Below are positions 7,171-52,000 of a stretch of 64,000 bases of DNA, one piece after another. Under the pieces are notes generated by a model that saw only the letters and a program-made list of their open reading frames with translations, did no database searches and was not told where the DNA came from. The stretch comes from Candidatus Nomurabacteria bacterium. GTDB lineage: Bacteria > Patescibacteriota > Minisyncoccia > Phycocordibacterales > UBA9973. The stretch covers positions 94,497 through 158,496 of the forward strand of contig CAWJHU010000001.1 of NCBI GenBank assembly GCA_963842815.1, in the 5' to 3' direction. Position 1 is the stretch's first letter; each line of letters begins with the position of its first letter. Made by a program: the position numbers and the translations under genes.

Positions 7171-7190
7171 AGCCCTCTCGGTCGGGTCTG
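7171..7190. repeat. Left copy of a direct repeat (AGCCCTCTCGGTCGGGTCTG); putative attL-side boundary of the integrated element
   Basis: Shares the exact GC-rich core CCTCTCGGTCGG plus TCT with 24502-24520, which sits next to the 3' end of tRNA-Arg(TCT); a GC-rich 12-mer is unlikely by chance in this AT-rich DNA. Confidence 0.5.
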
Positions 7191-7294
7191 AAATAGACAC
7201 AATGCACACTATAAAAAAGAGGTGCGTTTTGAAATGCCAACAAATGCCAATAAAATGAACTTTTGAAGATTCCTAAATATGATAGAATCAATTT

Positions 7295-13143: not shown

Positions 13144-13273
13144 CAGCTAGGTCTTGCGACCCCATACCAGTTTCCCGATACGGCCCTTGGAAGAGTTGCT
13201 GAACGCGGGGTTCAGTATCTTCCAAGGGTCTTTGGATCATGCCGTAAACTACTTCACGGTTTAGATCACTCAT
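13121..13273 (-). CDS. Possible small ORF (50 aa) upstream of 12190..13143
   Basis: Minus-strand ATG at 13271-13273 gives MSDLNREVVYGMIQRPLEDTEPRVQQLFQGPYRETGMGSQDLAGAGFSV; it overlaps a GC-rich nested hairpin (13184-13228). It may be non-coding. Confidence 0.2.
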
Positions 13274-16444: not shown

Positions 16445-18356
16445 CTTTAAAGATAATCTCTCTCTTTTCTTGTTCGCTGAATGTCTTTATTTTTACTTTT
16501 TTAATTTCAAATTTAGACACATCCAAGTCTGAAAGATTTTTATACTCTCTTTGAATTCTTGCTGACATTGCTGGTATCTCAATATCGAGTTTCTCAATAT
16601 CTTTTTTAGGATTATCTTTATCAACCTCAATAACCATCGGAGTAATTGGTTTTGCTCCAGTACCCATTAATCTCTTTTCAAGCAAAACTCCTTCACCCTT
16701 AATAGATTTAACAAAATCCATAAAAGCAGGTGTTCCTATAACACTTACATATTCTTCTACACTCTCATCGCCAAAATACATTCTTCTTAAACCTCTTCCA
16801 AGTGTTTGTTCTGGAAGAATCTTTGCATCAGATGTATATGGACGAAGTCCGACAATAGTCGTCACATTTTTTACATCCCAACCCTCTTTGAGCATCAAAA
16901 CAGAAACAATAACCTTAAAAGGACTTTCCCAACTATCTATTTCATTGGCTTGCTTTCTTAATATATCTAATTCTTCTTTACTCTTTCCAGTTACACTTTC
17001 TGAAATTTCACCGCTTTTATTAGTATGAATAGTTAAAACTGCATCTTTTAAATCAGAGAAACTACCTCTAATATATTCTGCCACATCATCACAATTCTTA
17101 GTATCGTCTGTCATGATAAAAAGAATAGATTTCTTTCCCGTTGGTTTTAGATATTCATATGTTTTTCTCCATTCTTCTACTCCTAAATTTATATAATCAC
17201 GATACTTCTCACTAAACAATGAGCTTTGATTCTCTTTTAATTTTCCACAACTTGCTTCGTCTGGCACAACAGGATTTTTAACAATTCTTTGATGTATGGC
17301 TTCAACTAAAGGATAGTCTGAAATTGTTTGCACAAAAATAGATCCATCATTCTTTTTTGGAGTAGCTGTCATATCTACTTGTAAAGCAAGTTTTGTGCCT
17401 TTACCTTTTAAACGATTGTGAATATCTTGGATAGACTTAAACCAAGCCATCTTTTCATCGTGAATATGGTGAGCTTCGTCGTTGATAATAATAAGCTCAT
17501 CAATATCACGAACAATCATTCCTAAATCAACTTTAGAATCATTTGTTTTTGCAACTGGTTTCTCTCCAAGAAAATACTCACTTGTATCTTCGTCTTCTGC
17601 ACTTGAAACAGAAACATCGCTTTCATAAACTCTGTGTATGTTTGTTAAAAAGATATTACCTGTATCTGAAACACTTTTTAATTCGTCCTGTAAGTGTAAT
17701 GTTATTTGAAAATCATCATTCCAATTTTGTCCTGCATAACCATTCTCTGGCAACACAGGATCATTATGGAATATTTTTAATCCTTCAAAATCATTCTTTA
17801 TTCTTTCGAAGACAATAACGTTGGGCGTTATCAAAAGAAAGTTTTTAGCCAACTTAGAATCTTCTTCATATTTCTTATGGAAATAGGCCCAAGCGATAAC
17901 TAAACTCATTACTTTTGTTTTACCTGCACCTGTTGCCATTTTAACCACAAAACGAAGCCAGTCTTCAGTAAACATATCTGCGCTTAATACTCCAGTAGAA
18001 TTGTATCTAAGTAAATCATATTTATCTTTTACCTTAGCAACTTCATAAAGCCAAATGATAGTTTCCATGGCTTCTCTTTGCGCAAAATAATATCGGAAAT
18101 TATAAAAAGAGCCATCTTTGTTATAGATAATATGTTCTTCTTTAAACCAGTAATTCAAAAGTGCCTTGGATGTATCACTAGCATCTTCGTATTTTTTATC
18201 TCTCCATTCTTTTACTTTCTTTCTAAGGTCAGCAACAAGAGGAGGAATAAGTTTATCAAATCCTTTTTCTCGCAGATCTTCGTCAGCAGGAAACCACCTA
18301 ATGCTAGGGTCTAAGATTGCGTATGGGTCTTTTGGAAAATTTTTATGCAGTGCCAT
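16317..18356 (-). CDS. res: Type III restriction enzyme Res, helicase (SF2) part
   Basis: VVKMATGAGKTKVM (Walker A) and IIINDEAHHI (DEAH box), with helicase C-terminal domain motifs; directly downstream of mod. Confidence 0.8.
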   Translation of the reverse strand: MALHKNFPKDPYAILDPSIRWFPADEDLREKGFDKLIPPLVADLRKKVKEWRDKKYEDASDTSKALLNYWFKEEHIIYNKDGSFYNFRYYFAQREAMETIIWLYEVAKVKDKYDLLRYNSTGVLSADMFTEDWLRFVVKMATGAGKTKVMSLVIAWAYFHKKYEEDSKLAKNFLLITPNVIVFERIKNDFEGLKIFHNDPVLPENGYAGQNWNDDFQITLHLQDELKSVSDTGNIFLTNIHRVYESDVSVSSAEDEDTSEYFLGEKPVAKTNDSKVDLGMIVRDIDELIIINDEAHHIHDEKMAWFKSIQDIHNRLKGKGTKLALQVDMTATPKKNDGSIFVQTISDYPLVEAIHQRIVKNPVVPDEASCGKLKENQSSLFSEKYRDYINLGVEEWRKTYEYLKPTGKKSILFIMTDDTKNCDDVAEYIRGSFSDLKDAVLTIHTNKSGEISESVTGKSKEELDILRKQANEIDSWESPFKVIVSVLMLKEGWDVKNVTTIVGLRPYTSDAKILPEQTLGRGLRRMYFGDESVEEYVSVIGTPAFMDFVKSIKGEGVLLEKRLMGTGAKPITPMVIEVDKDNPKKDIEKLDIEIPAMSARIQREYKNLSDLDVSKFEIKKVKIKTFSEQEKREIIFKDVVGRRIPSQDGTRWKYQCRLSKSGWILYASNYAGPSSFRLL

Positions 18357-18359
18357 ATA

Positions 18360-18992
18360 TTAGTATACTTTTTGGATAAGAGAAATAAATCTATCTAATT
18401 TTTCAATTAATTCATCAACTGATTCTTTTATTACAACATTTTTTGTATATGAAGCATTGGCACTATTCAGACTTTTAGGGTGAATTGTATTTCTTAAATG
18501 ATTTATATCATCAAGGTAAGTTTTCCAACTTTGATTTCTGAAAAAACCCGCTTTATTGAATATATCTAATAAATATCCCAATCCCGTATTTTTATTGCTT
18601 AGTTTTTCAGAAGCAATGACACTACATAAATCATTTTTCTTTTTTGCGTTTGTTCTGTGTTCAAACAAATCAAAAAGCAATCCTTCATATATGGAAGCAG
18701 ACAACTGACAAAGAACAAGTTTGTGTTGCCAACCAAAAGTAAGTCCTGGTTTTAGAAATTCATATACACTTCTATGATAATCTAAACACATTCTTAGTTC
18801 AGCGAGATTATTTCTTAATTCAAAATCTTTTACAAAAGAAAACATAGGACGATAATGACTACCTAAATTTTTACTTATTTTTCTACCATCAGATAATTTC
18901 ATTTTCCAATAGCAAAATCTATCTGGTAAAGATTGCAAATTATCGTGCACTGTCATAAAACAATCTTCGGTTGAATGTTCTACACTACTCAT
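18360..18992 (-). CDS. Hypothetical 210-aa protein inserted between mod and res
   Basis: Overlaps the mod stop by 4 nt and ends 4 nt before the res start; no recognisable domain. Confidence 0.45.
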   Translation of the reverse strand: MSSVEHSTEDCFMTVHDNLQSLPDRFCYWKMKLSDGRKISKNLGSHYRPMFSFVKDFELRNNLAELRMCLDYHRSVYEFLKPGLTFGWQHKLVLCQLSASIYEGLLFDLFEHRTNAKKKNDLCSVIASEKLSNKNTGLGYLLDIFNKAGFFRNQSWKTYLDDINHLRNTIHPKSLNSANASYTKNVVIKESVDELIEKLDRFISLIQKVY

Positions 18993-21112
18993 ATTTTCAC
19001 ATCAATTACTCTAGTAGTATCATTCCCGAAAATATCGACTACTTTTACAGCCACTTTATAAGTTCCCTTAGGTAATTCTTTTGGAGTAGAAACTAATTCA
19101 AGATTTCTTTTCTTCTTGGTTCTAAATTCTTGCCATTCATTGTCAAAAACATAATCGCCAGTCCAAACTTCTTTCTCTTTGCCATCCTCAATAACTTTTA
19201 CAATTTCTTGTCTACTAGAAAAATCATAATCAACTGCCCAATAATCAATCCAATCACTCCATTTTTTAGTCAAAGTTTCTCTTTCCACAAGTTCAGTTTT
19301 CTTATCTTTACTTATCTTTATTACTTGACCATTTTCAACAACAACCTTTGAGCTTCCAGCCTTCAATCCCTCCTCTATTTCTCCAGTATTGTCTTGATTA
19401 TAGAAAACAGAGAAATCTGTTAACTCAATAGAAAGCTCTTTGTTATTTCCTTTACCTTTGATAATTGGCTTTATTTCAATAAACGCAACATCGTAGAATT
19501 TTACTTGTCCTTTTTCTACAGCTCTTTTATCAAACACTTCTCTAGGAATTATTTTGAAGGCAATATCAATTCCTTCATCTTTATATTCCTGGAAATCCAA
19601 ACCCATTTCGTAATCAAAACCAAGCACATCAATTTTGGTAATGCTCTTTTCTTTGCACTCTTTAACTATATCTTTTACTAACTCATGAGAAACAGGAGTA
19701 TTTATTGGACCAACGGCAATCAACCGATCTCTTTTCTTCCCAACAATATTTACAAATGATTCTACTGGTTCAGCTTTATAGGCAGAAATAATTAATTTAA
19801 TAAATTCTCTTTCTTTTCTTTCAGCTTGTTTAGCTTTTTGTTCTGCCCTTAAATCATTATTTAATTCAAGAAAACTTTCTCTTTCATATTTACCAACATT
19901 TAGGATTTCAAAAGCTCTAAAATTCTTACCTTCTTTTTTAAGTTCTCTTTGAACTCCAATAAGTCTCTTCCTTGAGGTATGAGTAGCAAATTTACCTAAA
20001 TCAGATCCAATCCACTTTCTATTGAGTTTTTCAGCAACAGCCATAGTTGTTCCAGAACCACAGAAAAAATCAGCAATTAAATCACCTTCGTTTGAAGATG
20101 CATTTATAATTCTCTCTAATAATTTTTCAGTTTTTTGTGTTGGATAACCTAATCTTTCCTGAGAAGTAGAAATCTGTTGAAACGACATAATATCACTCCA
20201 AACATCCCCAATTGCTTTACCTTTAGCAAGAGTTTCATCTAAATATCTTTTTTCTCCACGACCACCAAAATATCTTCTACCATCTTCATCAATTTTATCA
20301 AATCTATCTATATATTCTTTTCTATGTTCAGTTGATAATTTATTAAAAATAAAAGAATCTTTATTTTTTGAATAAAAAAGAATAGTATCGTGACCCCTTA
20401 TCCAATTTCTTGCAATACTCTTGTATCCACTTAAAACACTTATATCCCAAATTATTTCTCTTTGGAAATTATCTGCCCCAAAAAGCTCATCTAAAACTAA
20501 GCGAATATGGCTATTTACCCTGTGGTCACAATGAACATAAATACTTCCATCTTCTGCAAGTAAATCATACATCAATCTTAACCGTTCATAAATCATGGAA
20601 ATAAAACTATTTGCTCCATTACCCCAAGTATCACGAAAAGCAACCTCTTCTATTACTGAAGGTTTTTTAGTAAAACTTTCCTCTTCCTCACCATCACCAA
20701 TTTTTATATCCATAGAAAAATCTGCCCCAACATCAAAAGGTGGATCAATGTAAACAAGTTTAAGTCCTCCTTGTGCTTCTATCTCTTTTCTAAGTGGTCC
20801 GTTTTTAAGAGAAGAAAGGATAAGCTTGTTATCGCCCCAAATAAGTTTATTAGTCCAGCCAGTTACTTGTCTTCCAGACATATCAAAAAGAGAATCCTGT
20901 AATCCAATTTTATCTTCTCCTCTAGGCTCATCAATTTGTTCAATAGTTTGAAAAGGTAAAACGGTAGTCGTTACGTCATTTGTTTTACCATTCCAAACAA
21001 GCTCTACTTCTCTGTCATCCTTGAATAGCAAAAACCGATATTTATCTGGTAATGACTTACCAGCTTCTAAGAATTTTACTATATCTCGTTTTTCATTGTC
21101 AGATAGTTGCAT
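18989..21112 (-). CDS. mod: Type III R-M Mod subunit (beta-class N6-adenine DNA methyltransferase) with a C-terminal extension of about 250 aa
   Basis: KLVYIDPPFDVGADFS (motif IV, DPPF), then GYPTQKTEKLLERII and FFCGSGTTMAVAEKLNRKWIGSD (motif I); the IV-to-I order marks the beta class. Confidence 0.8.
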   Translation of the reverse strand: MQLSDNEKRDIVKFLEAGKSLPDKYRFLLFKDDREVELVWNGKTNDVTTTVLPFQTIEQIDEPRGEDKIGLQDSLFDMSGRQVTGWTNKLIWGDNKLILSSLKNGPLRKEIEAQGGLKLVYIDPPFDVGADFSMDIKIGDGEEEESFTKKPSVIEEVAFRDTWGNGANSFISMIYERLRLMYDLLAEDGSIYVHCDHRVNSHIRLVLDELFGADNFQREIIWDISVLSGYKSIARNWIRGHDTILFYSKNKDSFIFNKLSTEHRKEYIDRFDKIDEDGRRYFGGRGEKRYLDETLAKGKAIGDVWSDIMSFQQISTSQERLGYPTQKTEKLLERIINASSNEGDLIADFFCGSGTTMAVAEKLNRKWIGSDLGKFATHTSRKRLIGVQRELKKEGKNFRAFEILNVGKYERESFLELNNDLRAEQKAKQAERKEREFIKLIISAYKAEPVESFVNIVGKKRDRLIAVGPINTPVSHELVKDIVKECKEKSITKIDVLGFDYEMGLDFQEYKDEGIDIAFKIIPREVFDKRAVEKGQVKFYDVAFIEIKPIIKGKGNNKELSIELTDFSVFYNQDNTGEIEEGLKAGSSKVVVENGQVIKISKDKKTELVERETLTKKWSDWIDYWAVDYDFSSRQEIVKVIEDGKEKEVWTGDYVFDNEWQEFRTKKKRNLELVSTPKELPKGTYKVAVKVVDIFGNDTTRVIDVKI

Positions 21113-21636: not shown

Positions 21637-22956
21637 ATGAATACATCACAAATGCCAGTTGGAGCTATGGCGAGAGAAATACAAGCCCCAGTAAAGGTGA
21701 AATATTGCCTTTATGCTAGAAAATCTACGGAAAGTGAGGAGGCTCAAATACTTTCCATAGATAGCCAGATTAAAGAAATGTTACAGATGGCGGAACGCGA
21801 TCACCTTGAGGTAATAGAAATAAAAAAAGAATCACACTCGGCGAAGGAAGCCGGACAGCGGCCAGTTTTTAATGAAATTGTTGATGAGATCAAACAAAAG
21901 AAATTCAATGGAATCCTAACATGGAACGCAGATCGTATTTCCAGAAACGCTGGAGATCTTGGAAGAATTGTAGACTTGATGGACGCAGGAATATTACACG
22001 AGATACGTACCTTTGGGCAGAAATTTTCAAACAGTCCGAATGAGAAATTTCTGCTGATGATTTTAGGGTCACAAGCTAAATTAGAGAATGATAACAAAGT
22101 AGTAAATGTTAAAAGAGGACTCCGAGCAAGATGTGAAATGGGTCTCTGGCCATGCACTGCCCCGACTGGATATCTCAGCAGTAAAAACACCGACAAACGA
22201 TGTCATGTTGAAATTGACCCACATCGGGCGCCGATTATCAAAAAAATGTTTGAGAAAGTGGCATATGAAAAATGTAGCGGGCGAAGATTGCACGCATGGT
22301 TAAAAGATGAAATGAAATTTAAGACTAGGAACGGAAAAATTTTCAGCATCAGCAATATTTACATAACTCTCAGAAATACTTTCTACTACGGCAGTTTTGA
22401 ATATCCAAAGGGTGGCGGGCAATGGTACACCGGCAAGCATACGCCAATAATTTCTAAAGAATTATTTGATAAGGTACAAGAACAAATGATGGAGTACACA
22501 AGGAATAGTGAACACAAAGAATTTGCCTTTACTAAATTAATGACCTGCGGACTGTGTGGATCGGGCATAACGGCTGATGAGAAATTCAAAAAACAAAACA
22601 ATGGAAATGTGCATCGGTATGTTTACTACGGATGTTGCAGATTCCAGGACAAAAATTGTAAATCGGGTTACATGCGAGAAGAAGATTTGATTGAGCAACT
22701 TGCAGGACTGATGGATGAAATTGACCTTGATGAGATCGGGATGAAGCAGAAGATTAAAGACGAAATTGAGCGACATAAGAGATTCAATATAGGCATACTC
22801 GGACTAAAAGAAGCAACCGTCAAAGTTGCAGATGTTGATATACGAAATTATGCTAAACATGTTCTGCGAGGTGGTAGCCTGGAAGAGAAACGAGAATTGC
22901 TGACTTGTTTAAGAAGTAAAGTGGTTATGAATAATAAAGAAGTAAGAATTAGTTAA
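21637..22956 (+). CDS. Large serine recombinase (resolvase/invertase catalytic domain, recombinase domain and zinc ribbon)
   Basis: YCLYARKSTESEEAQILSIDSQ carries the catalytic Ser; also LTWNADRISRN and C-terminal CGLCGSGITADEKF...CCRFQDKNCKSGYMREEDLIEQ (zinc ribbon plus coiled coil). Confidence 0.85.
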   Translation: MNTSQMPVGAMAREIQAPVKVKYCLYARKSTESEEAQILSIDSQIKEMLQMAERDHLEVIEIKKESHSAKEAGQRPVFNEIVDEIKQKKFNGILTWNADRISRNAGDLGRIVDLMDAGILHEIRTFGQKFSNSPNEKFLLMILGSQAKLENDNKVVNVKRGLRARCEMGLWPCTAPTGYLSSKNTDKRCHVEIDPHRAPIIKKMFEKVAYEKCSGRRLHAWLKDEMKFKTRNGKIFSISNIYITLRNTFYYGSFEYPKGGGQWYTGKHTPIISKELFDKVQEQMMEYTRNSEHKEFAFTKLMTCGLCGSGITADEKFKKQNNGNVHRYVYYGCCRFQDKNCKSGYMREEDLIEQLAGLMDEIDLDEIGMKQKIKDEIERHKRFNIGILGLKEATVKVADVDIRNYAKHVLRGGSLEEKRELLTCLRSKVVMNNKEVRIS

Positions 22957-24520: not shown

Positions 24521-24529
24521 ACTAACGTG

Positions 24530-24601
24530 TGCCCCTGGTAGGAATCGAACCTACATCGACGGCTTAGAAGTCCGCAGTTCTATCCATTGAACTACAGGGG
24601 C
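24530..24601 (-). tRNA. tRNA-Arg (anticodon TCT); no encoded CCA
   Basis: Reverse complement GCCCCTGTAGTTCAATGGATAGAACTGCGGACTTCTAAGCCGTCGATGTAGGTTCGATTCCTACCAGGGGCA; anticodon loop CTTCTAA is identical to E. coli tRNA-Arg(UCU), with one A.G mismatch in the anticodon stem. Confidence 0.7.
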
Positions 24602-24602
24602 C

Positions 24603-24678
24603 TGGTGCGCGGTAAGGGACTCGAACCCCTGACCTTCCCGGTGTAAACGGGTTGCTCTACCAACTGAGCTAACCGCGC
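24603..24678 (-). tRNA. tRNA-Val (anticodon TAC), CCA encoded
   Basis: Reverse complement GCGCGGTTAGCTCAGTTGGTAGAGCAACCCGTTTACACCGGGAAGGTCAGGGGTTCGAGTCCCTTACCGCGCACCA gives a perfect cloverleaf. Confidence 0.85.
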
Positions 24679-30604: not shown

Positions 30605-30679
30605 GCCCTCATAGTTTAATGGATAGAATGCGAGCTTGCGGAGTTTGCGATGTAGGTTCGATTCCTACTGAGGGCACCA
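30605..30679 (+). tRNA. tRNA-Arg-like paralog (my fold gives anticodon GCG; the weak anticodon stem may mean degeneracy), CCA encoded
   Basis: GCCCTCATAGTTTAATGGATAGAATGCGAGCTTGCGGAGTTTGCGATGTAGGTTCGATTCCTACTGAGGGCACCA. The D-arm and the whole variable/T-arm (CGATGTAGGTTCGATTCCTAC) are identical to tRNA-Arg(TCT) at 24530-24601; perfect acceptor and T stems. Confidence 0.6.
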
Positions 30680-30884
30680 TTAGGGAACTCATCGGTTTTT
30701 TGGAAGCCAAAATGCGGGACGCGCGAAGCGCGTCCCAAGGATTCCCGCCGAATTCCCCCAACGAATTCAGAATTTTTGGCGCGCTGGCGCGCACTGTTTT
30801 TTCGCCAAGAAGCAGGTTCGAGCCAAAGATTTCTTTGGCTACAGACCTTTTTAGCAAAAAGGTCGGAATCAGAATGCAATTTTG
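30675..30884 (+). repeat. Repeat X1: GC-rich, hairpin-dense repeat starting at the tRNA CCA (inverted partner at 32394-32558)
   Basis: About 95% identical to the reverse complement of 32394-32558 apart from a 43-nt insertion; contains perfect hairpins GGGACGCGC-GAAG-GCGCGTCCC and GGCGCGC-TG-GCGCGC. Confidence 0.8.
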
Positions 30885-32215
30885 TCCAATGCTTGTGCGT
30901 CTTTTACCCAGTTTTGGAAAGGTTCGAGCCAATCATTTTGCTTGTGTGAAAGAGAAGTCATTTCTTCTTCGAGCGACTTCTTTTGCAAAAGTAGTTTTCC
31001 TTTTTCAGAACGATAAATTTCTTTTTCAATATCTTGGTCAAGATATCCAGTAAGAAGTCGCTCTAATTTTTTTGAAATGAAGATATTTTTTCTTCTTTCT
31101 CTTTCACACAAGCAGTCAAAGACTGGGCGGAATTTTTGTGGTCTTTTTCTGCCATTTTCAATAATTCCTCCGCCCAGTCTTTGGGCAAAGAAACTTTTTG
31201 AATGAGTGATGATAACTGATTATCTAATTTTTCTTGGCGAATACAAGGTTCGGGACACTTCAAACTTTTAGTTTTTCTTCGTGCAGTGATAATAAACATA
31301 TTCGTGAACATTTCCATTTTTCTGTTTCTTCACCTTGTATTCGCCAGTTATCATCATTCCGCATGAAGCACAGGAAATAAGTCCGCAAAAAGGTTGAGGT
31401 TCATTTTTTGGTTTTCGTTCAGGTTGTACCACGTTGTTTCAACATTTCCTGTGCTTCATCAAAAAGTTTCTTTGAAATGATTGGCTCGTGCTTTCCTTCG
31501 TGGAGTTCACCACCATATTTAAATAATCCGATGTAAAAAGGATTTGAAAGAATAAAAGACGCTCTGGTTTTGTGAGATTCTCTTTCCGGTTCTTGAATAT
31601 AATGCCGGTTTTCGCCAAAAAGTTTGAAATATCTTCCAGCCGTATGATTTCCTTTCACGTATTTTCAAAAGCCAAGCGGATAATTTTAGATTTCTTTTTA
31701 TCAACCACAATATGTTTTTGTTCTGCGAATCGTTTAAATATCCCACTGGCGCTTGGCTTGGAAATATTCCCATTTCTAACTTTTTGGCGAAGTCCGCGTT
31801 TCGTATTTTCGGAAAGAGAATCTACATAGTATTTGCTTTGTCCGAAAGCCATATTCAACATAAATTTTCCTTGTGATGTGTTATCACACCAAAATGTTGG
31901 AAATTTTAGGCTCGCAAGTTTCCCTGTGTCGAGGAGATAAATAACTTTGACCTCCGTCCACCGAATTGCGGGCAAGACGATCGGGATTCCATGCGAGAAT
32001 GTTTCCGCCGAATTTTTCAATCTCATCTCATCATTTTATTAAAAATCGGACGACCTGGAATTTTCGCAGATTGTTTTTCAATACTATTCGGCGGAAATTT
32101 CAATATTTTCTCGCTTGGCATACTCCCGCAATTCGGTGAGTTGCGCGTCAATACTTAAAACTTGTTTATCCTCGACATCAGTGGACTTGCGAGCATACAA
32201 AAAGAATTTTTGCAT
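30869..32215 (-). pseudogene. Large serine recombinase pseudogene (at least five fragments separated by frameshifts and stops)
   Basis: Fragments: 32215->32095 MQKFFLYARKSTDVEDKQVLSIDAQLTELREYAKRENIEISAE* (catalytic-Ser region); 32026->31655 ...YVDSLSENTKRGLRQKVRNG; 31658->31419 ...GLFKYGGELHEGKHEPIISKKLFDEAQEM; then 31317->31063 and 31111->30869 (zinc ribbon and coiled coil). All align to the intact recombinase at 21637..22956. Confidence 0.75.
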
Positions 32216-32393
32216 ATATTTTTTTATAAAGCAGAAATGGCTACTCTAGTGTTGAAACCTTAACGAAAAGTTAAGATAGCTAGAATAGCCATTTCTGCTA
32301 ACTTTTCTAATAATCGGTTTCAACATTTCTAGTATACCAAAAAATATTTTATATCAAAAATTCTTTTTGTATTTTCTGACAAAGCAAATTCGT

Positions 32394-32558
32394 CAAAATT
32401 GCATTCTGATTTCGAACCTGCTTCTTGGCGAAAAAATAGTGCGCACCAGCGCGCCAAAAATTCTGAATTCGTTGGGGAAATTCGGCGGGAATCCTTGGGA
32501 CGCGCTTCGCGCGTCCCGCATTTTGGCTTCCAAAAAACCGATGAGTTCCCTTATGGTG
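32394..32558 (-). repeat. Repeat X2 (inverted copy of X1), joined at its outer end to repeat Y1
   Basis: Reverse complement matches X1; its outer end ...GAGTTCCCTTATGGTG abuts Y1. Confidence 0.8.
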
Positions 32559-32873
32559 TCTCTATTGTACCAAGTTAGAACCTATTTTCAAAACAAAGTA
32601 TCCTAGCGTTCCCCCGCGTGCTAAAGCACCTCTGTGCAGAAGCACAGAGCTTTCTCAAAGAGAAAGTGCGGGGAAAACGCTGAACGGCTCAAATACTGGG
32701 AAATGAGCCGTTCAAGAAAAAATGGACTCGGTTTTGCGAAACAATTTTGCGGGAGGAAGGATTCGCAAAACCGAGACTAAAGTTTTTTGAAATTCGGCGG
32801 GATTCGGGTTTCCGCCCCGCAGGAGGGTGCGGGAGGAATGCGGGGCGGGCATTTTGGATTTTTGGGCGGGCAA
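32554..32873 (+). repeat. Repeat Y1: about 320 bp, GC-rich and structured (inverted partner at 34644-34961)
   Basis: About 95% identical to the reverse complement of 34644-34961; hairpins CTCTGTGC-AGAA-GCACAGAG, GAACGGCTC...GAGCCGTTC and CTCGGTTTTGCGAA...TTCGCAAAACCGAG. Confidence 0.8.
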
Positions 32874-32909
32874 GTAGAAAAAGAAATACAAAAATGGTAA
32901 AATCTTTCT

Positions 32910-33299
32910 ATGAAAGATTTTGATCAATGGAATGAGCTAAAAAAGAAAATTGAAGCCGAGAAAAATAATCCTGAAAAATTTCCCAAAGAGGGAGAAGTTT
33001 GGATGAGTAATGTTGGCAAAAATATTGGCTTTGAACAAAATGGAAGCGGAGATAATTTTTCTCGTCCTGTTTTAATTGTGAAGAAATTTAACAATCATAT
33101 GTTTTGGGCTATATCACTTTCTACCAAACAAAAAGATTTTGATTTTTATTTCAATTTTACTGATTCAAATAATCAAAAAGTTTCCGCTATTTTGGCACAA
33201 ATGAAATTGATTAGTGTTAAAAGATTGAAAAGAAAACTTTATGATATTCCAAATGAACTTTTTGATGAAATGAAACAAAAATTAAAATCTTTTCTCTAG
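32910..33299 (+). CDS. PemK/MazF-family toxin-like protein with no adjacent antitoxin
   Basis: GEVWMSNVGKNIGFEQNGSGDNFSRPVLIVKKFNN...ISLSTK resembles Kid/PemK GEIWLVSLDPTAGHEQQGTRPVLIV...VVPVTS; followed by the hairpin terminator GAAACCCCGC-TTTTG-GCGGGGTTTC. Confidence 0.55.
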   Translation: MKDFDQWNELKKKIEAEKNNPEKFPKEGEVWMSNVGKNIGFEQNGSGDNFSRPVLIVKKFNNHMFWAISLSTKQKDFDFYFNFTDSNNQKVSAILAQMKLISVKRLKRKLYDIPNELFDEMKQKLKSFL

Positions 33300-33302
33300 A
33301 AA

Positions 33303-33330
33303 CTCGAAACCCCGCTTTTGGCGGGGTTTC
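33303..33330 (+). terminator. Rho-independent terminator after the MazF-like gene
   Basis: GAAACCCCGC TTTTG GCGGGGTTTC. Confidence 0.55.
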
Positions 33331-33644
33331 TCGGAGCCTTTCGGCACTTTGTATACTAAGTATAGCAAGCCAATAGACAAAGTCAAGCGAAATTTTTGAA
33401 TTACTAAAAGCTTGGCTTTTTGGCTTGTTTTTTATATAATAAAAGCACAATTTAATATGAAGACCTAACCCTTTGTTTTTTCATTGGCATGGTCAAAGAA
33501 ACTCGCTACAAGATAAAAAACTCCTCGTCAGAGTACTTGTAGCGAGTCATAGCTGGAAACGGCTGTGGGTAGTCTTTGGACTATCGGCTGGCGGGGATTT
33601 TTGTCAAAGTTTTCTTCTAGTTAAAATAAAAATCTCGCTACAAT

Positions 33645-34625
33645 ATGAAAAATAAATTTTTAAATTATTGTCTCATTTTTTCCTTAATATTGGTTGGTTA
33701 TTTTTTCTTTATTTCTAAAACATCAGCCGAAGAATCATGCACAGTACAGAATGCAAGTTTTTCACCCAGTGGAACTTTGCCAGATTTCTTAAATTCGGGT
33801 GGTAATATCAGTATTAATGTTGAAACTAATAACTGTGCTGGAAAAACAATTTTACTCACAGTTTTTGGAACACATGAACATTGGATCGGGCAAACTTCAC
33901 TTGCGGGGCAACTAACATCACCACTTGATGTTTCCGGTTTGCATAATAAACCTATTACTGTTCCAAACTCTGAAAACTTTAAAATTGATTTAATTGCAAA
34001 TGAGGAATCTTGTATAGGCCGTAATTCTTTTGTTAGTACATTGGGTGGACAAGCAATATATGCCACTTATGACTGTGCCTATTATTTTGAATTTGGTGGA
34101 GCAACAAATTTTAGTTCAATATCTTTTCCAAGTGGTGGAATAATTTATAACTGTAACGGTGAATGTGAAGATCAACAAAAACCTTGGAGTTTTATTTCAA
34201 TGACTGAACTTACAGCAGGTGGTGGAGGTGGTGGAGGACAAGGAGGTGGTGGTTCAGGTGGAGGTGGAGGAAGTGGTGGTGGAAATTATACTCCACCAGA
34301 ACCTGTTGATCTTTCAACAAGCGGAGGAGGTTTAAGTGCGGCTTGTCCAAAAACTGGATGTGGATTTAATGAATTAATGGAAATGGTTAATAAAGTTATT
34401 CACTTCATACTTTTTGATTTAGCTATGCCAATCGCGGCTATAATATTTGCATATGTAGGATTTTTACTTATTACAAGCGGAGGTAATCCAGAAACAAAAA
34501 ACAAAGCCAAGAAAATTTTTTGGAATGTATTTATTGGATTTGTTATTGCTTTAGCCGCTTGGTTGATTGTTAAAACAATTCTTTCAACTTTAGGATATAC
34601 TGGCACATCTTTTTTGGCTGATTAA
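33645..34625 (+). CDS. Secreted protein with a Gly-rich linker and a C-terminal TrbC/VirB2-like pilin domain
   Basis: Signal/TM at the N-terminus; GGGGGGGQGGGGSGGGGGSGGG linker; C-terminal LAMPIAAIIFAYVGFLLITSGGNPETKNKAKKIFWNVFIGFVIALAAWLIVKTIL is the two-helix VirB2/TrbC-type pilin pattern. Confidence 0.5.
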   Translation: MKNKFLNYCLIFSLILVGYFFFISKTSAEESCTVQNASFSPSGTLPDFLNSGGNISINVETNNCAGKTILLTVFGTHEHWIGQTSLAGQLTSPLDVSGLHNKPITVPNSENFKIDLIANEESCIGRNSFVSTLGGQAIYATYDCAYYFEFGGATNFSSISFPSGGIIYNCNGECEDQQKPWSFISMTELTAGGGGGGGQGGGGSGGGGGSGGGNYTPPEPVDLSTSGGGLSAACPKTGCGFNELMEMVNKVIHFILFDLAMPIAAIIFAYVGFLLITSGGNPETKNKAKKIFWNVFIGFVIALAAWLIVKTILSTLGYTGTSFLAD

Positions 34626-34643
34626 AATAATTTTAATCTTTTG

Positions 34644-34961
34644 TTGCCCGCCCAAAAATCCAAAATTCTCGCCCCGCATTCCTCCCGCACCCTCCTGCGG
34701 GGCGGAAACCCAAATCCCGCAGAATTTCAAAAATCTTTAGTCTCGGTTTTGCGAATCCTCCCTCCCGTAATATTGTTTCGCAAAACCGAGTCCATTTTTT
34801 CTTGAACGGCTCATTTCCCACCATTTGAGTCGTTCGGCGTTTCCCCGCACTTTCTCTTTGAGAAAGCTCTGTGCTACTGCACAGAGGTGCTTTAGCACGC
34901 GGGGGAACGCTAGGATACTTTGTTTTGAAAATAGGTTCTAACTTGGTACAATAGAGACACA
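34644..34961 (-). repeat. Repeat Y2 (inverted copy of Y1); its outer end resembles a degenerate tRNA 3' half
   Basis: Reverse complement matches Y1. The outer terminus GGTTCTAACTTGGTACAATAGAGACAC resembles the tRNA-Arg 3' half GGTTCGATTCCTACTGAGGGCACCA. Confidence 0.8.
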
Positions 34962-34983
34962 ATTTGAAAATTAATTTCTATTT

Positions 34984-37206
34984 TTACTCCGCGTTCATTT
35001 TTATTTTAGTCTTCGCTCCCACAAGACCATCGGCTACCAAGCCTTGGGCTTTTTGCCATTTCTTGATGACAGCAATTGTCTTCGGACCTAGTTTCCCATC
35101 TACCGCCAAGCCCAGACTTAATTTATCATTCAGGAATCTTTGCAATTCCATAACGGCTGCTCCTCTGCTTCCGTTTTTCAAGGTGACCGTACCGAAGTTG
35201 TAAGTAGCTGTTACGCCTGTGCCTGCGTTTCCCGCACAGGATACGCCGGTGGTTGTGCTGAAGCCGGTGGTTCTATTGTCACAGCCGGGGATGGTGGTTT
35301 TCGTACTGAGAGAAGTTGTTGTTGTTGCCGGAGGATAGTACCCTCCTCCACTTCCGCCGCCTCCGCCGCCAGTAGTGGTAGTTGAGGAATTTGTGTTGCT
35401 TCCACTATTATTGCCAGTATTAGTGGTGCTTGTTGAAGTTGAAGGAGGGGTGGTTGTAGTGGAAGAAGGAGGAGTGGTGTCAGTTGCGGGAGGAGATGCA
35501 ACAACAACAGTAGTATTCCCAACCGATTGAGCTACGGCTTCCCATAATGGATTAGAAGTTTGCAAAGTAGATTTATTCGGAAGCCAACCGGCCGGAAAAT
35601 CATAAATCATAAAACCGCCGAAGTTTTTTTGCTTGACCCATTGCATAATTGCGCTGACAGACTGGGGAGTTTGCACGTCATATAAATAATTATTCCACAA
35701 TGCCCAGGAAGCTTCGGCTGAACTGTCCCATTGAAAAACAGCGGATGGGTCGTTTCGCATGTCGTTTCTCGCTTGAACGTAAGCCCAGGAAGTGTATTTG
35801 TCTCCTGGTTTTGTTGCTCCTCCAAATTTTATAGATTCAAAAGAAATTGAAATGGCCATTTTGGACACATCATAGCCCCCGGTGATGAAACTAATTGCAT
35901 TATCATTTAAAGTACATCCTGCCAATCCAAGATACTGGGTTGATTTATATACGGGCGTTCCATATCCGGCGACGGGACCTCCGCAATTAACCCACATGGT
36001 ATAGGTCATCGCATACATTTGGTCTAAATCCGCGTTCATCACAAGCGGGTCGTAAGCATTATGAAATGTTGCCATATCCAAGGACTCAACCAGAATTCCG
36101 CGCGTCGGCCATTTGTTAAGTTCCGTACGATAATCATTCAAAAGATAACTATGCTCGCTTTTAACATTGGGCCATTCCCAGTCAATTTCAATTCCGTCAA
36201 ACCCATTGGCTTGGGCATAGGCGGAAGATTGCTGAACCAGCATATCAATTTTGGCCGGGTCGGAAGAAATGGCATTGAGGTTCGTCCCCGGATATACGCT
36301 CGCGACACTTAGCAAAACTTTCACGTTATGACTATGAGCTGCCGCAATGGTTCGGCTCAAATAGGACCTTCCGGAAGAATCTTTGAAATCCAAACCGGAA
36401 GATGAAAAATATGGAGCGCTTGTAATTACTCCTCCCCCTGTAAACAAAACCATGTGAGTCATGCCGGTCCAATCTATATTTTCCGGGTCCAAAGTGCCCC
36501 ACCACCAATCTGGATAATATCCCACAAGCCACATTCCACTTGAAGATGATGAACTGCCGCCGGAAGTAGTGCCGGAAGAAACAGGAGGGGTTGAACCGGA
36601 ATTCGTGTTGTCCACGGGAGGAGGATTAGAAACCACCGGCGGAACAGTCCCCGAAGGAGCAGAAGACCCGGCCGGGACAAATTGAATTTCATCCAGATAA
36701 AATGTTCTCGGTTGCCCACTTGTCTCGGTAATATAAAAACTATTTATCGGATGATTTTCCGGGTCAAGGGTGCTCATCGGTATATTAAAAAGAGTCCAGA
36801 TATTGGCTGGAGCGCTGGCAGTATATCCAGGGAAAGAATCTCCGGCATCGTTTTCAAATTTAAACTGAAGGGCAGCGCCCTGGGTTCCTCCATAGACAGC
36901 GACGGAAAAAAAAGAATATTGGCTGGAAAGAATATTGTTATGAACCCCCCAATTGCCATTTCTTGCCCTGAAAGCTCCCCAGATGCCGTTGATTACTTTT
37001 ATGGATGTGGTTCCGGCATAGGCCTGTTCGGTACTGTTAATTACCCTGGAGCTGGCATAGGAAACATCCATCCAGGGAGAATTAAGAGATGAATCCTGAT
37101 AAACATAAAGGGGGGCTGTTTGACCATGAACGAAAACAGCCGTTCCTATAAAAATTAAAGTTAGGATAAAAAGAAGCGCATAAAATTTTTTTGTTAATAT
37201 TTCCAT
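34984..37206 (-). CDS. Secreted GH18-like glycoside hydrolase with a C-terminal peptidoglycan-binding domain (PG_binding_1) and Ser/Thr/Gly-rich linkers
   Basis: Signal peptide; NGFDGIEIDWEWP is the GH18 DGxDxDWE catalytic motif; C-terminal GSRGAAVMELQRFLNDK...VDGKLGPKTIAVIKKWQKAQGLVADGLVGAKT is the peptidoglycan-binding repeat. Confidence 0.7.
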   Translation of the reverse strand: MEILTKKFYALLFILTLIFIGTAVFVHGQTAPLYVYQDSSLNSPWMDVSYASSRVINSTEQAYAGTTSIKVINGIWGAFRARNGNWGVHNNILSSQYSFFSVAVYGGTQGAALQFKFENDAGDSFPGYTASAPANIWTLFNIPMSTLDPENHPINSFYITETSGQPRTFYLDEIQFVPAGSSAPSGTVPPVVSNPPPVDNTNSGSTPPVSSGTTSGGSSSSSSGMWLVGYYPDWWWGTLDPENIDWTGMTHMVLFTGGGVITSAPYFSSSGLDFKDSSGRSYLSRTIAAAHSHNVKVLLSVASVYPGTNLNAISSDPAKIDMLVQQSSAYAQANGFDGIEIDWEWPNVKSEHSYLLNDYRTELNKWPTRGILVESLDMATFHNAYDPLVMNADLDQMYAMTYTMWVNCGGPVAGYGTPVYKSTQYLGLAGCTLNDNAISFITGGYDVSKMAISISFESIKFGGATKPGDKYTSWAYVQARNDMRNDPSAVFQWDSSAEASWALWNNYLYDVQTPQSVSAIMQWVKQKNFGGFMIYDFPAGWLPNKSTLQTSNPLWEAVAQSVGNTTVVVASPPATDTTPPSSTTTTPPSTSTSTTNTGNNSGSNTNSSTTTTGGGGGGSGGGYYPPATTTTSLSTKTTIPGCDNRTTGFSTTTGVSCAGNAGTGVTATYNFGTVTLKNGSRGAAVMELQRFLNDKLSLGLAVDGKLGPKTIAVIKKWQKAQGLVADGLVGAKTKIKMNAE

Positions 37207-49008: not shown

Positions 49009-52000
49009 ATGAGCACAAAAACAAAATTATTTATAGTCAGTTTGATAACCCTTTGGGGAATTTTTGCCAGCGGGAGCCTGGCTCTTGCCCAAACCGTTGT
49101 TCCAACCTGCAACAGCGCCACAATTTATGGAACGGTCACAACAAATGGCAATCCGACCGACGCTTGGTTTGAATGGGGTCCTACCCAGTCTCTTGGCAAT
49201 TCAACAGCGCACCAAACTTTTTATTCGGATTCAAATTTTAGCCAATCAATTTCCGGCCTTGCCCAAAATACTACCTACTATTACAGAGCAATGGCTTCAA
49301 ATGTTTATGGAACTGCCGTTGGCACTATAAAATATTTCACAACATCTACGTGTTCCGTTACCCCCATAACCAATCCAACCGCTAGTTTAACCGCCGATAA
49401 TACAAATTTGACTTACAACGGTTCCACTTATTTGCATTGGTCATCCACCAACGCTACTTCCTGTGTAGGAACAGGTTTCAATACCAACAACACTACTTCC
49501 GGAAACTATTACACAGGGGCTTTAACCAACACCACAACCTACGGTATCACCTGTTATGGCGGAACCAGTACAACTCCTGCCTATTCTTCGGTAACGGTCA
49601 TCGTAAACCAACCTGTTGTAAATCCTCCAACTGTCACTTTAACAGCGGACAATCAGAATGTTCCCTATGATGGTTCAACATATATTCACTGGACACCTAC
49701 CAATGCCACTTCCTGCACCGGAAGCGGTGGAGCAAATGGATGGTCGGGAACAAAAAGTATTACCGGTGGAAGTTTTTATACCGGCGCTTTAACTTATACG
49801 GCAACCTACAATATCAATTGTACAAACAGCGCCGGGCAAGCAAATGCTTCGGTAACGGTAAATGTGCCCAGCCAATCCATAATGTCCGGAACTCTTGCCT
49901 TAAATCCATCTTCTTGCATCATTCAATCCGGAAGCGGAACTTGTAGCTCAATTCTTTCCTGGAGCACTACTAATCCGCAGGGAACTTCTGTTGTTACTTC
50001 TTCTTATCCCAGCAGCAACACACCCGTTGCCACGGGAAATTCGGGTAGCCAGTCGGTAGCTATTCCATATAGTTCCAGGTCATTTTATCTTTACAATAAT
50101 AATATTCTTCTTGACCAAAAAACGGCGACATCCAGCTGCGCCTCCAATACTTCTTGGAATGGCAGTATCTGCGCGCCTTCCACTTCGCAAAATCCAACCG
50201 TCAGTTTGACGGCGGACAATCAAAATGTTTCCTATGGCGGTTCAACTTATCTTCATTGGTCATCTGCCAATACTACTTCCTGCGTGGGAACAAATTTTAA
50301 TACCAACAGCGCCACTTCCGGAAGTTATTACACCGGCGCTTTAACTAACACAACTACCTATAGTATTATTTGTTACAACACAAATGCTATTGGCAATCCT
50401 TCCATCAGCGACTCGGTAACCATCACGGTAGGAGGCCAGCCCGTTTCAAATCCAACCGTCAGTTTGACGGCGGATAATCAAAATGTTTCCTATAATAGCG
50501 CCACATATCTTCGTTGGTCATCCACTAATGCGACATCCTGTGTTTCAAACGGCGGAAATTGGAACGGCAATCAGGCTTTGTCCGGAAATTTTTACACCGG
50601 AATTTTACTTAACACCACAACCTACAACATAACCTGCACGAACGGCAATGGTTCAGCCACCGCTTCCACAACAGTTACAGTTGACAATCAACCTTCTTCA
50701 AATCCAACGGTCACTTTAACGGCAATCAATCAAAATGTTTCCTACAATGGTTCAACATATATTCATTGGACATCCACCAGCGCAACTTCCTGCGTAGGGA
50801 CAGGATTCAACACAAGCGGAGCAATTTCCGGAAGTTATTATACCGGCGCCCTAACCAACACTATGAATTACGGCATTATTTGTTACGGAGCCAATGGCAC
50901 TTCAGCCAACGCTTCCACAACCGTCGTTGTTGGGAATCAGCCATACGGAAACATAAATATCACCACAAATGGAGCCACCAATGTGGGCACCAGCTATGCA
51001 ACTCTTAATGGTTTTGTCAGTTCCAATGGCACCATTAGTGTAAATGCCTGGTTTGAATGGGGAACGAGTTCATCCTTCGGCAATCAAACAAATCAAATAA
51101 ATTATGGCATGACCAGCGGCACCAGTTACAACTATTATTTAAGCGGCCTCATGCAAAATACAACTTACTATTATCGAGCGGTGGCCCAGGGCAATGACGG
51201 TCAAATCGCTTACGGCAATTCAATGTCTTTTACAACCACAAATGATTACAGCGGATGTACTTACAATTGTTATTCGGGTCAGCCCATGGTGACCACCTAT
51301 TCCGCTACCACAACCAGCACCACCAGCGCTATTTTGAATGGCTTCGTTGACCCAAACGGTTCTTCCGCCACAAGGTGGTTTGAGTGGGGCAATTCTTACA
51401 GTTATTTATACACTTCAACAAATAAAACATATCAGGGGTCCTATGCAAGCAACTTCAGTGAATCAATATACAATCTTGTACCCAATACCATTTATTATTA
51501 TCGGGCAGCGGCTCAGGGCAGTAATGGAGTAATTATTTATGGCAACACTTTGACTTTTACCACTTCTTATTCCGGCGGTATATATAACTATAACAATGTC
51601 TGCGATTCCTACGGCGGCGGTTATTACGGTTATGGTACCTGTACTCCGACAGCTACCACCACTCTTGCCACAAATATTGGACAATCCAGCGCCAGATTGG
51701 GCGGCCTCGGCTTGGTAAACGGTAATATTTACACTTCCGGATATTTTGAGTACGGAACATCTCAGGCGTTTGGAAGCACAACCACCACCATGAGCATAGG
51801 TACTGCTTCATCCAATCCATTTTTCGCAGATGTATATAATCTCGCATCCGGCACCACCTATTATTACCGAGCAGTAGTTACGAATCAATATGGAAGTTCC
51901 TACGGAGATACTTTGAATTTCACCACTCTCAGTCCGACTTATGTTAATTCAAATCCGGGACCTGTTTATACAAAGACAACGGTCGTTACGAATACGAGTA

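Follow-up and report, generated by a model that had tools for sequence, protein, structure and literature searches.

A MazF/PemK-family gene with a conserved convergent small RNA, a candidate RNA antitoxin, carried beside a LOOT RNA and a pilin-like gene in a tRNA-Arg element of a Candidatus Nomurabacteria bacterium

We analysed positions 32910-34625 of a 64-kb stretch of DNA from a Candidatus Nomurabacteria bacterium (contig CAWJHU010000001.1; the whole 64 kb is called the window below), where a gene of the MazF/PemK endoribonuclease family is followed on the opposite strand by a conserved gene for a small RNA (sRNA). We infer that the two are best explained as a toxin-antitoxin pair in which the sRNA would be the antitoxin, because a toxin-family RNase without a protein partner adjoins an obligatory, structured RNA gene with a promoter of its own. 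The interval holds two open reading frames (ORFs) on the + strand, one at 32910-33299 (129 aa, MazF) and one at 33645-34625 (326 aa, pilin-like), separated by a gap of 345 nt (33300-33644), the same spacer length as was given in the first-pass annotation of this DNA. That annotation had described MazF as an orphan toxin and a hairpin in the spacer as a suggested operator; we arrive at a different account of both. On balance we favour the view that a small integrative element with a decayed recombinase, inserted at the 3' end of a tRNA-Arg gene, carries the interval as its cargo, and that this cargo would consist of three separable modules: MazF with its sRNA, a LOOT RNA, and a protein with a VirB2-like pilin domain. 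Known families (MazF, LOOT, VirB2-like pilins and serine-recombinase elements) account for part of these observations.

The 129-aa product matched the Pfam PemK_toxin profile (PF02452) over residues 26-129 with 35.2 bits (cut-off 23.1), in agreement with its earlier description as MazF/PemK-like. The GEVW motif occupies residues 28-31, leaving the 27 residues ahead of the core that had also been noticed, and this N-terminal extension is helical in a low-confidence structural model. A phmmer search of PDB with the single sequence yielded no MazF match and a profile was required: using a profile built from 38 homologues, we retrieved solved EndoA/MazF structures (4MDX at 3.4e-4, 4MZM and 1UB4) with E-values of 3e-4 to 5e-3. 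All 38 of these homologues have R52-P53, and nearly all have S71-T72. The alignment matches R52 to the arginine of the VRPVLV segment in EndoA from Bacillus subtilis, and T72 lies within the segment aligned to the threonine-containing stretch of EndoA, the register being uncertain at the level of single residues. We take the catalytic residues of these enzymes to be an arginine (R25 in EndoA, R29 in MazF of E. coli) and a threonine (T48 and T52, respectively). The relatives of MazF number at least 968 proteins; of the best 120 listed, most have a length of 129 aa, identities are 76-98%, and the named ones are labelled Parcubacteria or Patescibacteria. PADLOC and NCBIfam returned no match for MazF.

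For the comparison of flanking DNA, MazF homologues were retrieved by scanning one genome per species, yielding 66 loci whose flanks were aligned; related loci compared with the window carry L-numbers (L012, L030 and so on). The flank alignment comprised 52 distinct loci, from metagenome-assembled genomes labelled Patescibacteria/CPR (candidate phyla radiation) and one labelled Saprospiraceae. Upstream of MazF, conservation is limited to an extended -10 box (TGnTAAAAT) that in most loci stops 6 nt short of the ATG; sequences farther upstream are unrelated among the homologues. In the window this promoter (TGgTAAAAT; 32875-32903, + strand) is kept across homologues and was also recovered by a promoter scan. 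The MazF mRNA is thereby implied to be leaderless and monocistronic, since a -10 box 6 nt from the ATG leaves no space for a co-transcribed antitoxin. The ORF itself begins 36 nt beyond the end (32873) of the inverted-repeat arm Y1 described below, and thus closely follows this repeat, as reported at first pass.

We found no protein partner for MazF by any of the searches made. The seven small ORFs in or beside 32712-32927 and 33165-33655 had no Pfam match even at E<=1, so that a search for a MazE-like small ORF, as had been proposed, came back empty. The called genes that adjoin MazF homologues are unrelated. An adjacent co-transcribed MazE/PemI, AbrB or RHH antitoxin, which would define a type II system, was thus not found at MazF. 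The orphan status claimed for the toxin therefore stood as far as proteins are concerned, and it overlooked the conserved convergent sRNA gene 3' of MazF.

About 95 nt 3' of the MazF stop codon are conserved in every locus, including those whose proteins are just 41-43% identical. Read on the reverse strand, the 52-sequence alignment shows TTGACt, 16-17 nt, TGnTATACT, 6-8 nt, ACAAAGUGCC-GNRA-GGCUCCGAG, then a 10-bp GC-rich hairpin and finally GAGUUUCUA, the complement of the MazF stop codon. This arrangement is that of a gene for an sRNA of about 55 nt, preceded by a sigma-70-type promoter of its own and including a covarying, terminator-like hairpin. In the window the sRNA, a candidate RNA antitoxin, lies at 33297-33356 (- strand; covariance-model match of 84 bits) and its promoter, TTGACT-16-TATACT with TG, at 33359-33386 (- strand), identified both from the alignment and by an independent promoter scan of the window (33386 to 33359, 10/12 matches with TG). 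The predicted transcript runs from about 33352 to 33300 and reads 5'-ACAAAGUGCC-GAAA-GGCUCCGAG-[GAAACCCCGC..GCGGGGUUUC]-GAGUUU, with hairpin A at 33345-33336 and hairpin B at 33330-33306. Over the 52 sequences, 99.4% of the cells in the helices are paired and double-sided changes occur in 10 of 13 pairs; none of 500 shuffles reached this level of pairing, and in controls with the partner slid by 1-3 columns 22-57% of cells are paired. Outside the helices, ACAAAG at the 5' end and CGAG on either side of the large hairpin are invariant and single-stranded. The Rfam scan of the window returned no match at this position, and the sRNA thus constitutes an RNA family with clear covariation that is unlisted in Rfam.

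We assigned the sRNA to the strand antisense to MazF because of its loop type, its promoter at a fixed distance and the validity of its G.U pairs on that strand. Read antisense to MazF, hairpin A has a GNRA loop in 47 of 52 sequences and a UUCG loop in 2, and such loops are found on that strand only. A promoter-like site stands at a fixed distance from the sRNA start in 50 of the 52 loci, and the pairs that are not Watson-Crick favour the same strand, with 6 G.U/U.G cells as opposed to no more than 4 non-standard cells. A covariance model of the sRNA, searched against 951 kb of related DNA, yielded 69 full-length matches scoring 35-86 bits. Of these, 67 were located directly 3' of MazF homologues on the opposite strand, including at 13 loci that had not been used to train the model, and the other two were a match at the edge of a locus (L041, 73-132) and a copy in L071. 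The same model gave 0 matches in 521 kb of Patescibacteria DNA without MazF. In the sequence searched, the sRNA is thus linked exclusively to MazF.

Several of these loci deserve separate mention. In L048 (1862-2248) and L072 (10001-10387) the MazF homologue has one in-frame stop and is probably inactivated, and the sRNA is retained in both. L071 carries a divergent MazF paralogue of the REIWWCSLGVNVGYEQDG type, and 120 nt beyond it the same strand bears an sRNA-like copy (6625-6685 and 6804-7196, - strand). A 1.58-Mb contig labelled Saprospiraceae (L041, 10001-10447) contains the MazF-sRNA module with 75% protein identity and an sRNA of 80.9 bits, as well as the second sRNA-like match at 73-132; this module represents either transfer outside Patescibacteria or mis-binning.

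As an antitoxin, the sRNA could work in a type III-like way, through direct contact with the MazF protein, or in a type I-like way, through base pairing with the MazF mRNA at the 3' end where the two overlap, and the pair would stabilise whichever DNA carries both genes. A classical type I block of translation initiation was ruled out, pairing of the sRNA with the 5' end of the MazF mRNA being no better than in shuffles (mean z -0.24); without such pairing, a type I-like action would need the short 3' overlap. The invariant ACAAAG and CGAG would be dispensable for antisense pairing in cis, and they hint at recognition by a protein, as in a type III-like mode.

A number of points weigh against an RNA antitoxin. 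The lack of pairing at the mRNA 5' end is one. Transcription of the sRNA is predicted from its promoter and its structure. The interval contains no tandem repeats at the thresholds used, unlike known type III antitoxins, and the same-strand copy in L071 is the sole exception found to the convergent layout. The AF2 model of MazF is of low confidence (pLDDT 51.6) and retrieved no PDB entry in Foldseek at E<=0.001; its secondary-structure elements follow an order compatible with the MazF/Kid fold. Solo MazF toxins under other regulation exist, for instance in Myxococcus, as cited in PMC2701414. Finally, hairpin B is palindromic and might be merely a bidirectional terminator. This last point opens onto another account of the region, which we judge unlikely: the element 3' of MazF would be a bidirectional terminator with an antisense promoter that lowers MazF expression by transcriptional interference, or else a stability element of the 3' untranslated region, and MazF a solo regulatory RNase. 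That hairpin B is the same on both strands and adjoins the MazF stop codon would fit such a function, as would the absent pairing with the mRNA 5' end. However, the GNRA and UUCG loops of hairpin A are confined to the antisense strand (49 of 52), the distance from promoter to RNA start is fixed in 50 of 52 loci, the G.U pairs favour the strand antisense to MazF (6 versus at most 4 cells), and a terminator would have no need of an invariant single-stranded ACAAAG or CGAG. We retain the toxin-antitoxin reading. According to PMC2701414, 'solo' genes make up over half of the large toxin families; a recognisable conserved RNA partner for one solo MazF clade provides a testable answer for a whole lineage and prompts a search for hidden RNA partners beside other orphan toxins.

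The spacer between MazF and the pilin-like gene contains a second structured RNA. A scan with Rfam identified LOOT (RF03000) at 33462-33585 (+ strand) with 78.2 bits (gathering score 46.4), the match covering model positions 1-121 and thus the full model with helices P1 to P4. In the model alignment, the arms of the hairpin, CTCGCTACAAG (33502-33512) and CTTGTAGCGAG (33536-33546), 23 nt apart, are the two strands of P2. The arms and the gap had been correctly recognised at first pass with coordinates one off (true span 33502-33546), and the operator function proposed for them was not supported: the inverted pair is explained by the P2 helix of a structured RNA and not by an operator, and in other LOOT copies P2 differs in sequence and is still self-complementary, as in the second LOOT of the window (CCCTTGGAAGA/TCTTCCAAGGG) and in L031 (CACGGTCTGTG/CACAGACCGTG). 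Ahead of LOOT are a candidate promoter from the promoter scan, TTGGCT-17-TATAAT (33412-33440, + strand), and, from the sequence, a second -10-like box, TAATAT (33451-33456, + strand). Past the end of the Rfam model, a 3' tail (33586-33606, + strand) provides a pseudoknot followed by a U-run: GGCGGGGA in this tail pairs with CUCCUCGUC in the P2 loop over 9 bp, and across the LOOT copies this helix has 94.9% of cells paired, compensatory changes in three pairs and 35-61% pairing in slid controls. The pseudoknot and U-run recur in the tail of the second window LOOT (13134-13148) and in L022, L025, L031, L028 and L088.

The second LOOT of the window was found by the Rfam scan at 13149-13267 (- strand, 84 bits), about 33 nt upstream of a gene for a DUF5655-domain protein (ATG near 13101), and the start of that gene has no copy of this LOOT's own P2 strand. 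Overall, 7 of the 8 LOOT copies with downstream sequence are followed by a co-directional ORF within about 35-45 nt of the aligned tail. A regular link between LOOT and MazF was ruled out, LOOT being located 3' of MazF in just 6 of about 66 loci; an initial scan of 14 related MazF loci gave none, its sole LOOT match being L001, the window's own contig. LOOT is classed by Rfam as an sRNA gene. It is listed among metagenome-derived RNAs in PMC7779021, with Weinberg et al. 2017 as its origin; we found no function assigned to it in the literature consulted, and the main text of Weinberg et al. 2017 is silent on LOOT.

The 5' strand of P2 has a further copy at the start of the pilin-like gene. The exact 10-mer CTCGCTACAA occurs three times in the window, at 33502-33511, at 33537-33546 (other strand) and at 33634-33643 (+ strand, the strand of the P2 5' arm), all within 145 nt. 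The third copy ends 1 nt before the pilin ATG at 33645, at the coordinates that had been reported. The chance of an exact copy within 100 nt is about 6e-5, whereas the number of one-mismatch copies across the window is not significant (3 found, 2.2 expected). The order LOOT, spacer of about 40 nt, motif and ATG is the same in the window and in L025, L022 and L024. In these four pilin loci the motif has a pairwise identity of 86%, against 46% for the spacer. It is conserved in L025 and L022, and L024 has a C-to-T change, which retains a G.U pair with the 3' arm of P2, and one further change. From this comparison of sequences we conclude that the start-codon motif is constrained in this pilin subfamily.

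The P2 3' strand and the third copy are complementary; for this pilin subfamily alone, LOOT could exert control at the RNA level, the P2 3' strand or the LOOT tail pairing with the pilin start region. Such a reading explains the motif most simply and is more economical than a DNA operator, its role being unproven. In the thermodynamic fold of 33462-33690, P2 stays closed and the LOOT 3' tail pairs with AAAAAUCUCGC. Three observations speak against an RNA-level role: P2 is a closed helix of 11 bp and would be a poor seed for action in trans; its sequence is identical in all four pilin loci, which leaves covariation no test; and L031, L028 and the second window LOOT have no copy of their own P2 at the downstream start codons. 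As a general feature of LOOT, the copy of a P2 arm was ruled out by its absence from these same three.

The first-pass interpretation, in which MazF is a true orphan and a repressor of the pilin gene would bind CTCGCTACAA as its DNA operator, made up of the inverted pair and a third half-site, appears very improbable to us. The three exact occurrences within 145 nt, one of them touching a start codon, their preservation in four loci and the absence of a protein antitoxin ORF beside MazF had made it reasonable. Against this, the inverted pair is P2 of LOOT, a family defined by structure whose other copies have compensating changes in P2; the cassette has no gene for a DNA-binding protein; the variant motif of L024 preserves a wobble pair in RNA; and MazF does have a conserved partner in the form of an RNA gene. 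A stronger competitor, although one we still doubt, holds that LOOT acts by itself, in trans or as a structural sRNA, and was mobilised along with the pilin gene, the third motif being a functionless relic of a local duplication. In its favour, the P2 5' region and the pilin start resemble each other over about 24 nt, which a duplication would explain, Rfam treats LOOT as an sRNA gene, -10-like boxes of its own precede it, a U-run after a covarying pseudoknot fits termination before the pilin gene, and other LOOT loci are without such a motif copy. It does not sit well with a motif conserved well above the spacer when the proteins are just 68-70% identical, nor with the co-directional ORF found within about 35-45 nt of the tail in 7 of 8 LOOT copies.

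Taking both RNAs together, we put forward with less than even confidence a broader proposal in which this MazF subfamily and its convergent 55-nt sRNA would form a widespread toxin-antitoxin class and LOOT a cis-acting leader. Within that proposal it is conceivable, at a similarly modest level of belief, that an RNA of a single unit neutralises a MazF-fold RNase, which would account for the 'solo' MazF proteins of Patescibacteria and possibly for their relatives on plasmids and prophages of Campylobacterota. We also suggest, as tentatively, that the LOOT pseudoknot and U-run would serve as a conditional terminator and that in the pilin subfamily a strand of P2 would compete with its mimic at the start codon. 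The fixed place of LOOT ahead of co-directional genes, together with the new pseudoknot and U-run and the start-codon mimic, makes a cis-regulatory role testable.

The 326-aa product of the gene at 33645-34625 (+ strand) matched the Pfam T4SS_pilin profile (PF18895) at its C-terminus (residues 257-312) with 38.9 bits (cut-off 26.6), which supports the earlier description as VirB2/TrbC-like; PF04956 (TrbC/VirB2) scored 19.3, under its cut-off of 27.9. Its sole NCBIfam match, a Mbov_0395 pilin-like family, scored 24.4, under the cut-off of 40, and PADLOC gave no match for it. As read from the sequence, the N-terminus (residues 1-28) resembles a signal peptide, being hydrophobic with TSA/EE (slash at the putative cleavage site). 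The sequence also indicates a Cys-containing domain of about 160 residues (from about 30 to 190) and a Gly-rich linker (191-214). The AlphaFold model predicts this middle domain as beta strands at low confidence and gives the C-terminal VirB2-like domain (241-315) two long helices (241-277 and 282-315, pLDDT about 70). We propose that the protein is secreted and membrane-anchored and has a VirB2-like domain. It counts against this that the whole model has a pLDDT of 56.1 and that Foldseek found nothing in PDB at E<=0.001; phmmer with the single sequence against PDB gave only artefacts of the Gly-rich linker.

A search of 5.8 billion proteins yielded five relatives of the pilin-like protein, and for four of them (L025, L022, L024 and L023) the DNA was compared. 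The proteins of L025, L022 and L024 are 68-70% identical to it over the full length and 87% over the C-terminal third. L023, 50% identical, has neither LOOT nor the motif. In L022 no MazF is found upstream and the neighbour is a gene for Met-tRNA synthetase, so that LOOT and the pilin gene form a unit of their own. No component of a type IV secretion system (T4SS) was detected among the 24 other window ORFs scanned, as had been stated for the neighbourhood, and genes for type IV pilus PilM and PilB-like proteins are present. The oddity that had been seen in a pilin apart from T4SS genes dissolves when set against a survey of 3,035 Patescibacteria genomes, in which VirB2-like proteins and VirB4 occur together in 1,948 assemblies and near virB4 in 1,135 only (PMC12102498). 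VirB2-like genes of Patescibacteria are often found in variable arrays, which the authors of that survey link to host adaptation (PMC12102498).

The MazF-sRNA and LOOT-pilin modules share one cargo slot of an element in which two pairs of inverted repeats abut, the X pair enclosing a serine recombinase and the Y pair the cargo. At its left end lies a tRNA-Arg(gcg) gene (30605-30679, + strand), whose 3' end ..GAGGGCAC/CA forms the left junction (attL-like, B.X; slashes mark junctions). Arm X1 (30675-30821, + strand) is 97% complementary to X2, and its - strand encodes C-terminal residues of the recombinase. The large serine recombinase (30654-32215, - strand) is a pseudogene, about 49% identical to an intact 524-aa homologue in L012; it aligns end to end with intact homologues of 520-550 aa, which have Resolvase, Recombinase and Zn-ribbon domains, and contains many frameshifts and in-frame stops. 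The outer end of X2 (32412-32558, + strand) abuts Y1 at a shared GTG/CAC, forming an internal, inverted Y.X (attP-like) junction. Y1 (32556-32873, + strand) is 95% complementary to Y2 (34644-34960, - strand), rich in GC hairpins and homologous to Y arms of other species, and the outer end of Y2 forms the right junction (attR-like, Y.B'). The three junctions read ..GAGGGCAC/CATTAGGG at the tRNA (B.X), ..GAGACAC/CATAAGGG internally on the - strand (Y.X) and ..GAGACAC/AATTTG at the right (Y.B'). Both Y arms end in an outward, near-consensus promoter-like site recovered by the promoter scan, TTGAAA-16-TACAAT with TG: that of Y1 (32564-32591, - strand) reads across the junction into the recombinase, and that of Y2 lies at 34925-34952 (+ strand). 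Equivalent boxes are present in L012, L030 and L031, where the same B.X, inverted Y.X and Y.B' logic is found at other tRNA genes. An independent assembly of the same cargo, L001 (Logan contig ERR10755942_5784485), corresponds to window positions 32818-34699 and ends symmetrically 56 nt inside both Y arms, as a segment bounded by repeats would.

Of 80 metagenome loci of the recombinase, 63 show it flanked by inverted repeats, and in 59 a tRNA lies no more than 250 nt from where the recombinase match ends. At least 14 of the 24 long loci possess, in addition, a second pair of repeats that encloses variable cargo, such as an ABC transporter, a radical SAM enzyme, a glycan esterase or a CYTH-NUDIX-methyltransferase protein. 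MazF occurs in none of the 80, and an obligatory place for it in the recombinase element was thereby ruled out; most MazF-sRNA loci in turn have no recombinase nearby. MazF-sRNA and LOOT-pilin are thus independent passengers that here occupy one cargo slot. The slot of L031 holds MazF-sRNA, LOOT and a different secreted protein. We recorded the twin-repeat family in the window (30605-34984), L012/L013 (5764-9481), L030 (7943-11967) and L031 (516-4832), and also in L094, L117, L122, L124, L128, L131, L136, L137 and L161. Twin-inverted-repeat elements at tRNA genes with single variable cargo modules look like a common route of mobility in the reduced genomes of Patescibacteria, with cargo that includes a pilin-like protein and a surface glycan esterase, VirB2-like pilins being linked to host adaptation (PMC12102498).

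The promoters on both Y arms raise the idea that the Y-flanked segment is a phase-variable invertible switch for the expression of MazF and pilin. With respect to the recombinase, the cargo of L012 is turned the opposite way to that of the window, L030 and L031, and contigs of identical sequence exist in both orientations (L012 versus L020, L015 and L016). We nevertheless consider the switch improbable: the MazF and pilin genes have their promoters inside the segment, so that flipping it would switch neither, the window's recombinase is a pseudogene, its repeat arms have diverged by 3-5%, and perfect repeat arms leave the assembled orientation ambiguous. Inversion of the cargo is thus unproven. 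As to the contigs concerned, L020, L015 and L016 have the same MazF segment joined to the recombinase side in the opposite orientation, and L012 and L013 (5764-12390) share 6.6 kb of identical sequence that takes in the element, the tRNA and DNA beyond, and are wholly different past the outer end of the Y arm, which could reflect recombination at the Y end or an ambiguity of assembly. The window also contains a second large serine recombinase, intact and 439 aa long (21637-22956, + strand), with Resolvase, Recombinase and Zn-ribbon domains and 38% identity to the element type. It has no long inverted repeats around it, tRNA genes lie at 24529-24678 (- strand), and in principle it could act in trans.

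Elsewhere in the window, we noted a gene for a 1191-aa DUF11-domain protein (49009-52584, + strand) with five tandem coding repeats of about 250 nt that are 61-82% mutually identical, and restriction-modification-like genes (16317-21112, - strand, and 8028-9422, + strand) encoding a ResIII helicase, two N6/N4 DNA methylases and a methylase with a ParB-N domain.

Compared with known mobile elements, the one described here shares with phage-type serine integrases (phiC31/Bxb1) and Tn4451 a site at a tRNA 3' end and B.X and Y.B' junctions with a CAC core. It differs from serine-integrase elements by an internal inverted attP-like junction, arms of 100-490 bp, one pair of which includes C-terminal codons of the recombinase, and no replication genes. 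An integron gene cassette was ruled out, the flanks being long inverted repeats and the recombinase a serine enzyme, not the tyrosine recombinase IntI. In the yeast 2-micron circle, inverted FRT repeats split the molecule into two segments, and the division of the present element into two segments by long inverted repeats is comparable by analogy. To our knowledge, this layout has not been described. The pilin-like protein shares a hydrophobic two-helix C-terminus with VirB2/TrbC-like pilins of Patescibacteria, which are variable, multi-copy and often distant from virB4 (PMC12102498); unlike these, it has about 200 extra residues ahead of the domain and is carried as mobile-element cargo behind LOOT. 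The Pam pilus, described in a preprint, is unrelated to VirB2-like pilins. With respect to the Rfam model of LOOT, the copies analysed here add a 9-bp pseudoknot, a 3' tail and a U-run, all past the end of the model, and the pilin-linked subfamily further differs by the copy of a P2 strand at the downstream start codon.

The MazF-sRNA pair resembles three types of toxin-antitoxin system in part, and we found no description of such a class in the literature. With the type II systems MazEF/PemIK (EndoA/YdcE of B. subtilis, MazF of E. coli and S. aureus) it has in common the Pfam family of the toxin, the conserved Arg-Pro and a near-invariant Thr, and it differs from them by the absence of a MazE/PemI gene, by a predicted monocistronic leaderless mRNA and by the 27-aa N-terminal extension, a convergent sRNA gene occupying the place expected for the partner. 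Members of the MazF subfamily with the N-terminal extension, at 34-44% identity, are found on plasmids of Campylobacter, Helicobacter and Nitratiruptor and in CJIE4 prophages, with no annotated antitoxin. One of them, 44% identical and likewise without an annotated partner, is carried by C. jejuni pVir (L172, NC_005012, 30630-31034), where a GC hairpin lies just past the stop codon and our covariance model of the CPR sRNA gives no match. A validated sRNA-antitoxin system, CjrA/CjpT, is reported for pVir (PMC7826846, PMC10470494). Were CjpT this PemK homologue, an RNA antitoxin would already be established for the subfamily, and the novelty of the MazF-sRNA pair hinges on this Campylobacter comparison.

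Convergent type I pairs (txpA/RatA and bsrG/SR4), and SymE/SymR with its nuclease-like toxin (PMC1891008), have a small cis-encoded antisense RNA with its own promoter in a compact layout, as is predicted here; classical type I toxins are small membrane peptides, whereas the toxin here is a 129-aa protein of an RNase family and the predicted overlap is confined to the 3' untranslated region. With type III systems (ToxIN, CptIN and TenpIN) the pair would share the principle of an RNA that neutralises an endoribonuclease. The known antitoxins of this type are arrays of tandem repeats that lie upstream of the toxin gene in the same orientation and are processed by the toxin, whereas here a single RNA unit is encoded downstream and convergently, and the toxin belongs to the PemK family (PF02452) and not to ToxN/AbiQ. 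The fold of ToxN is itself Kid/MazF-like.

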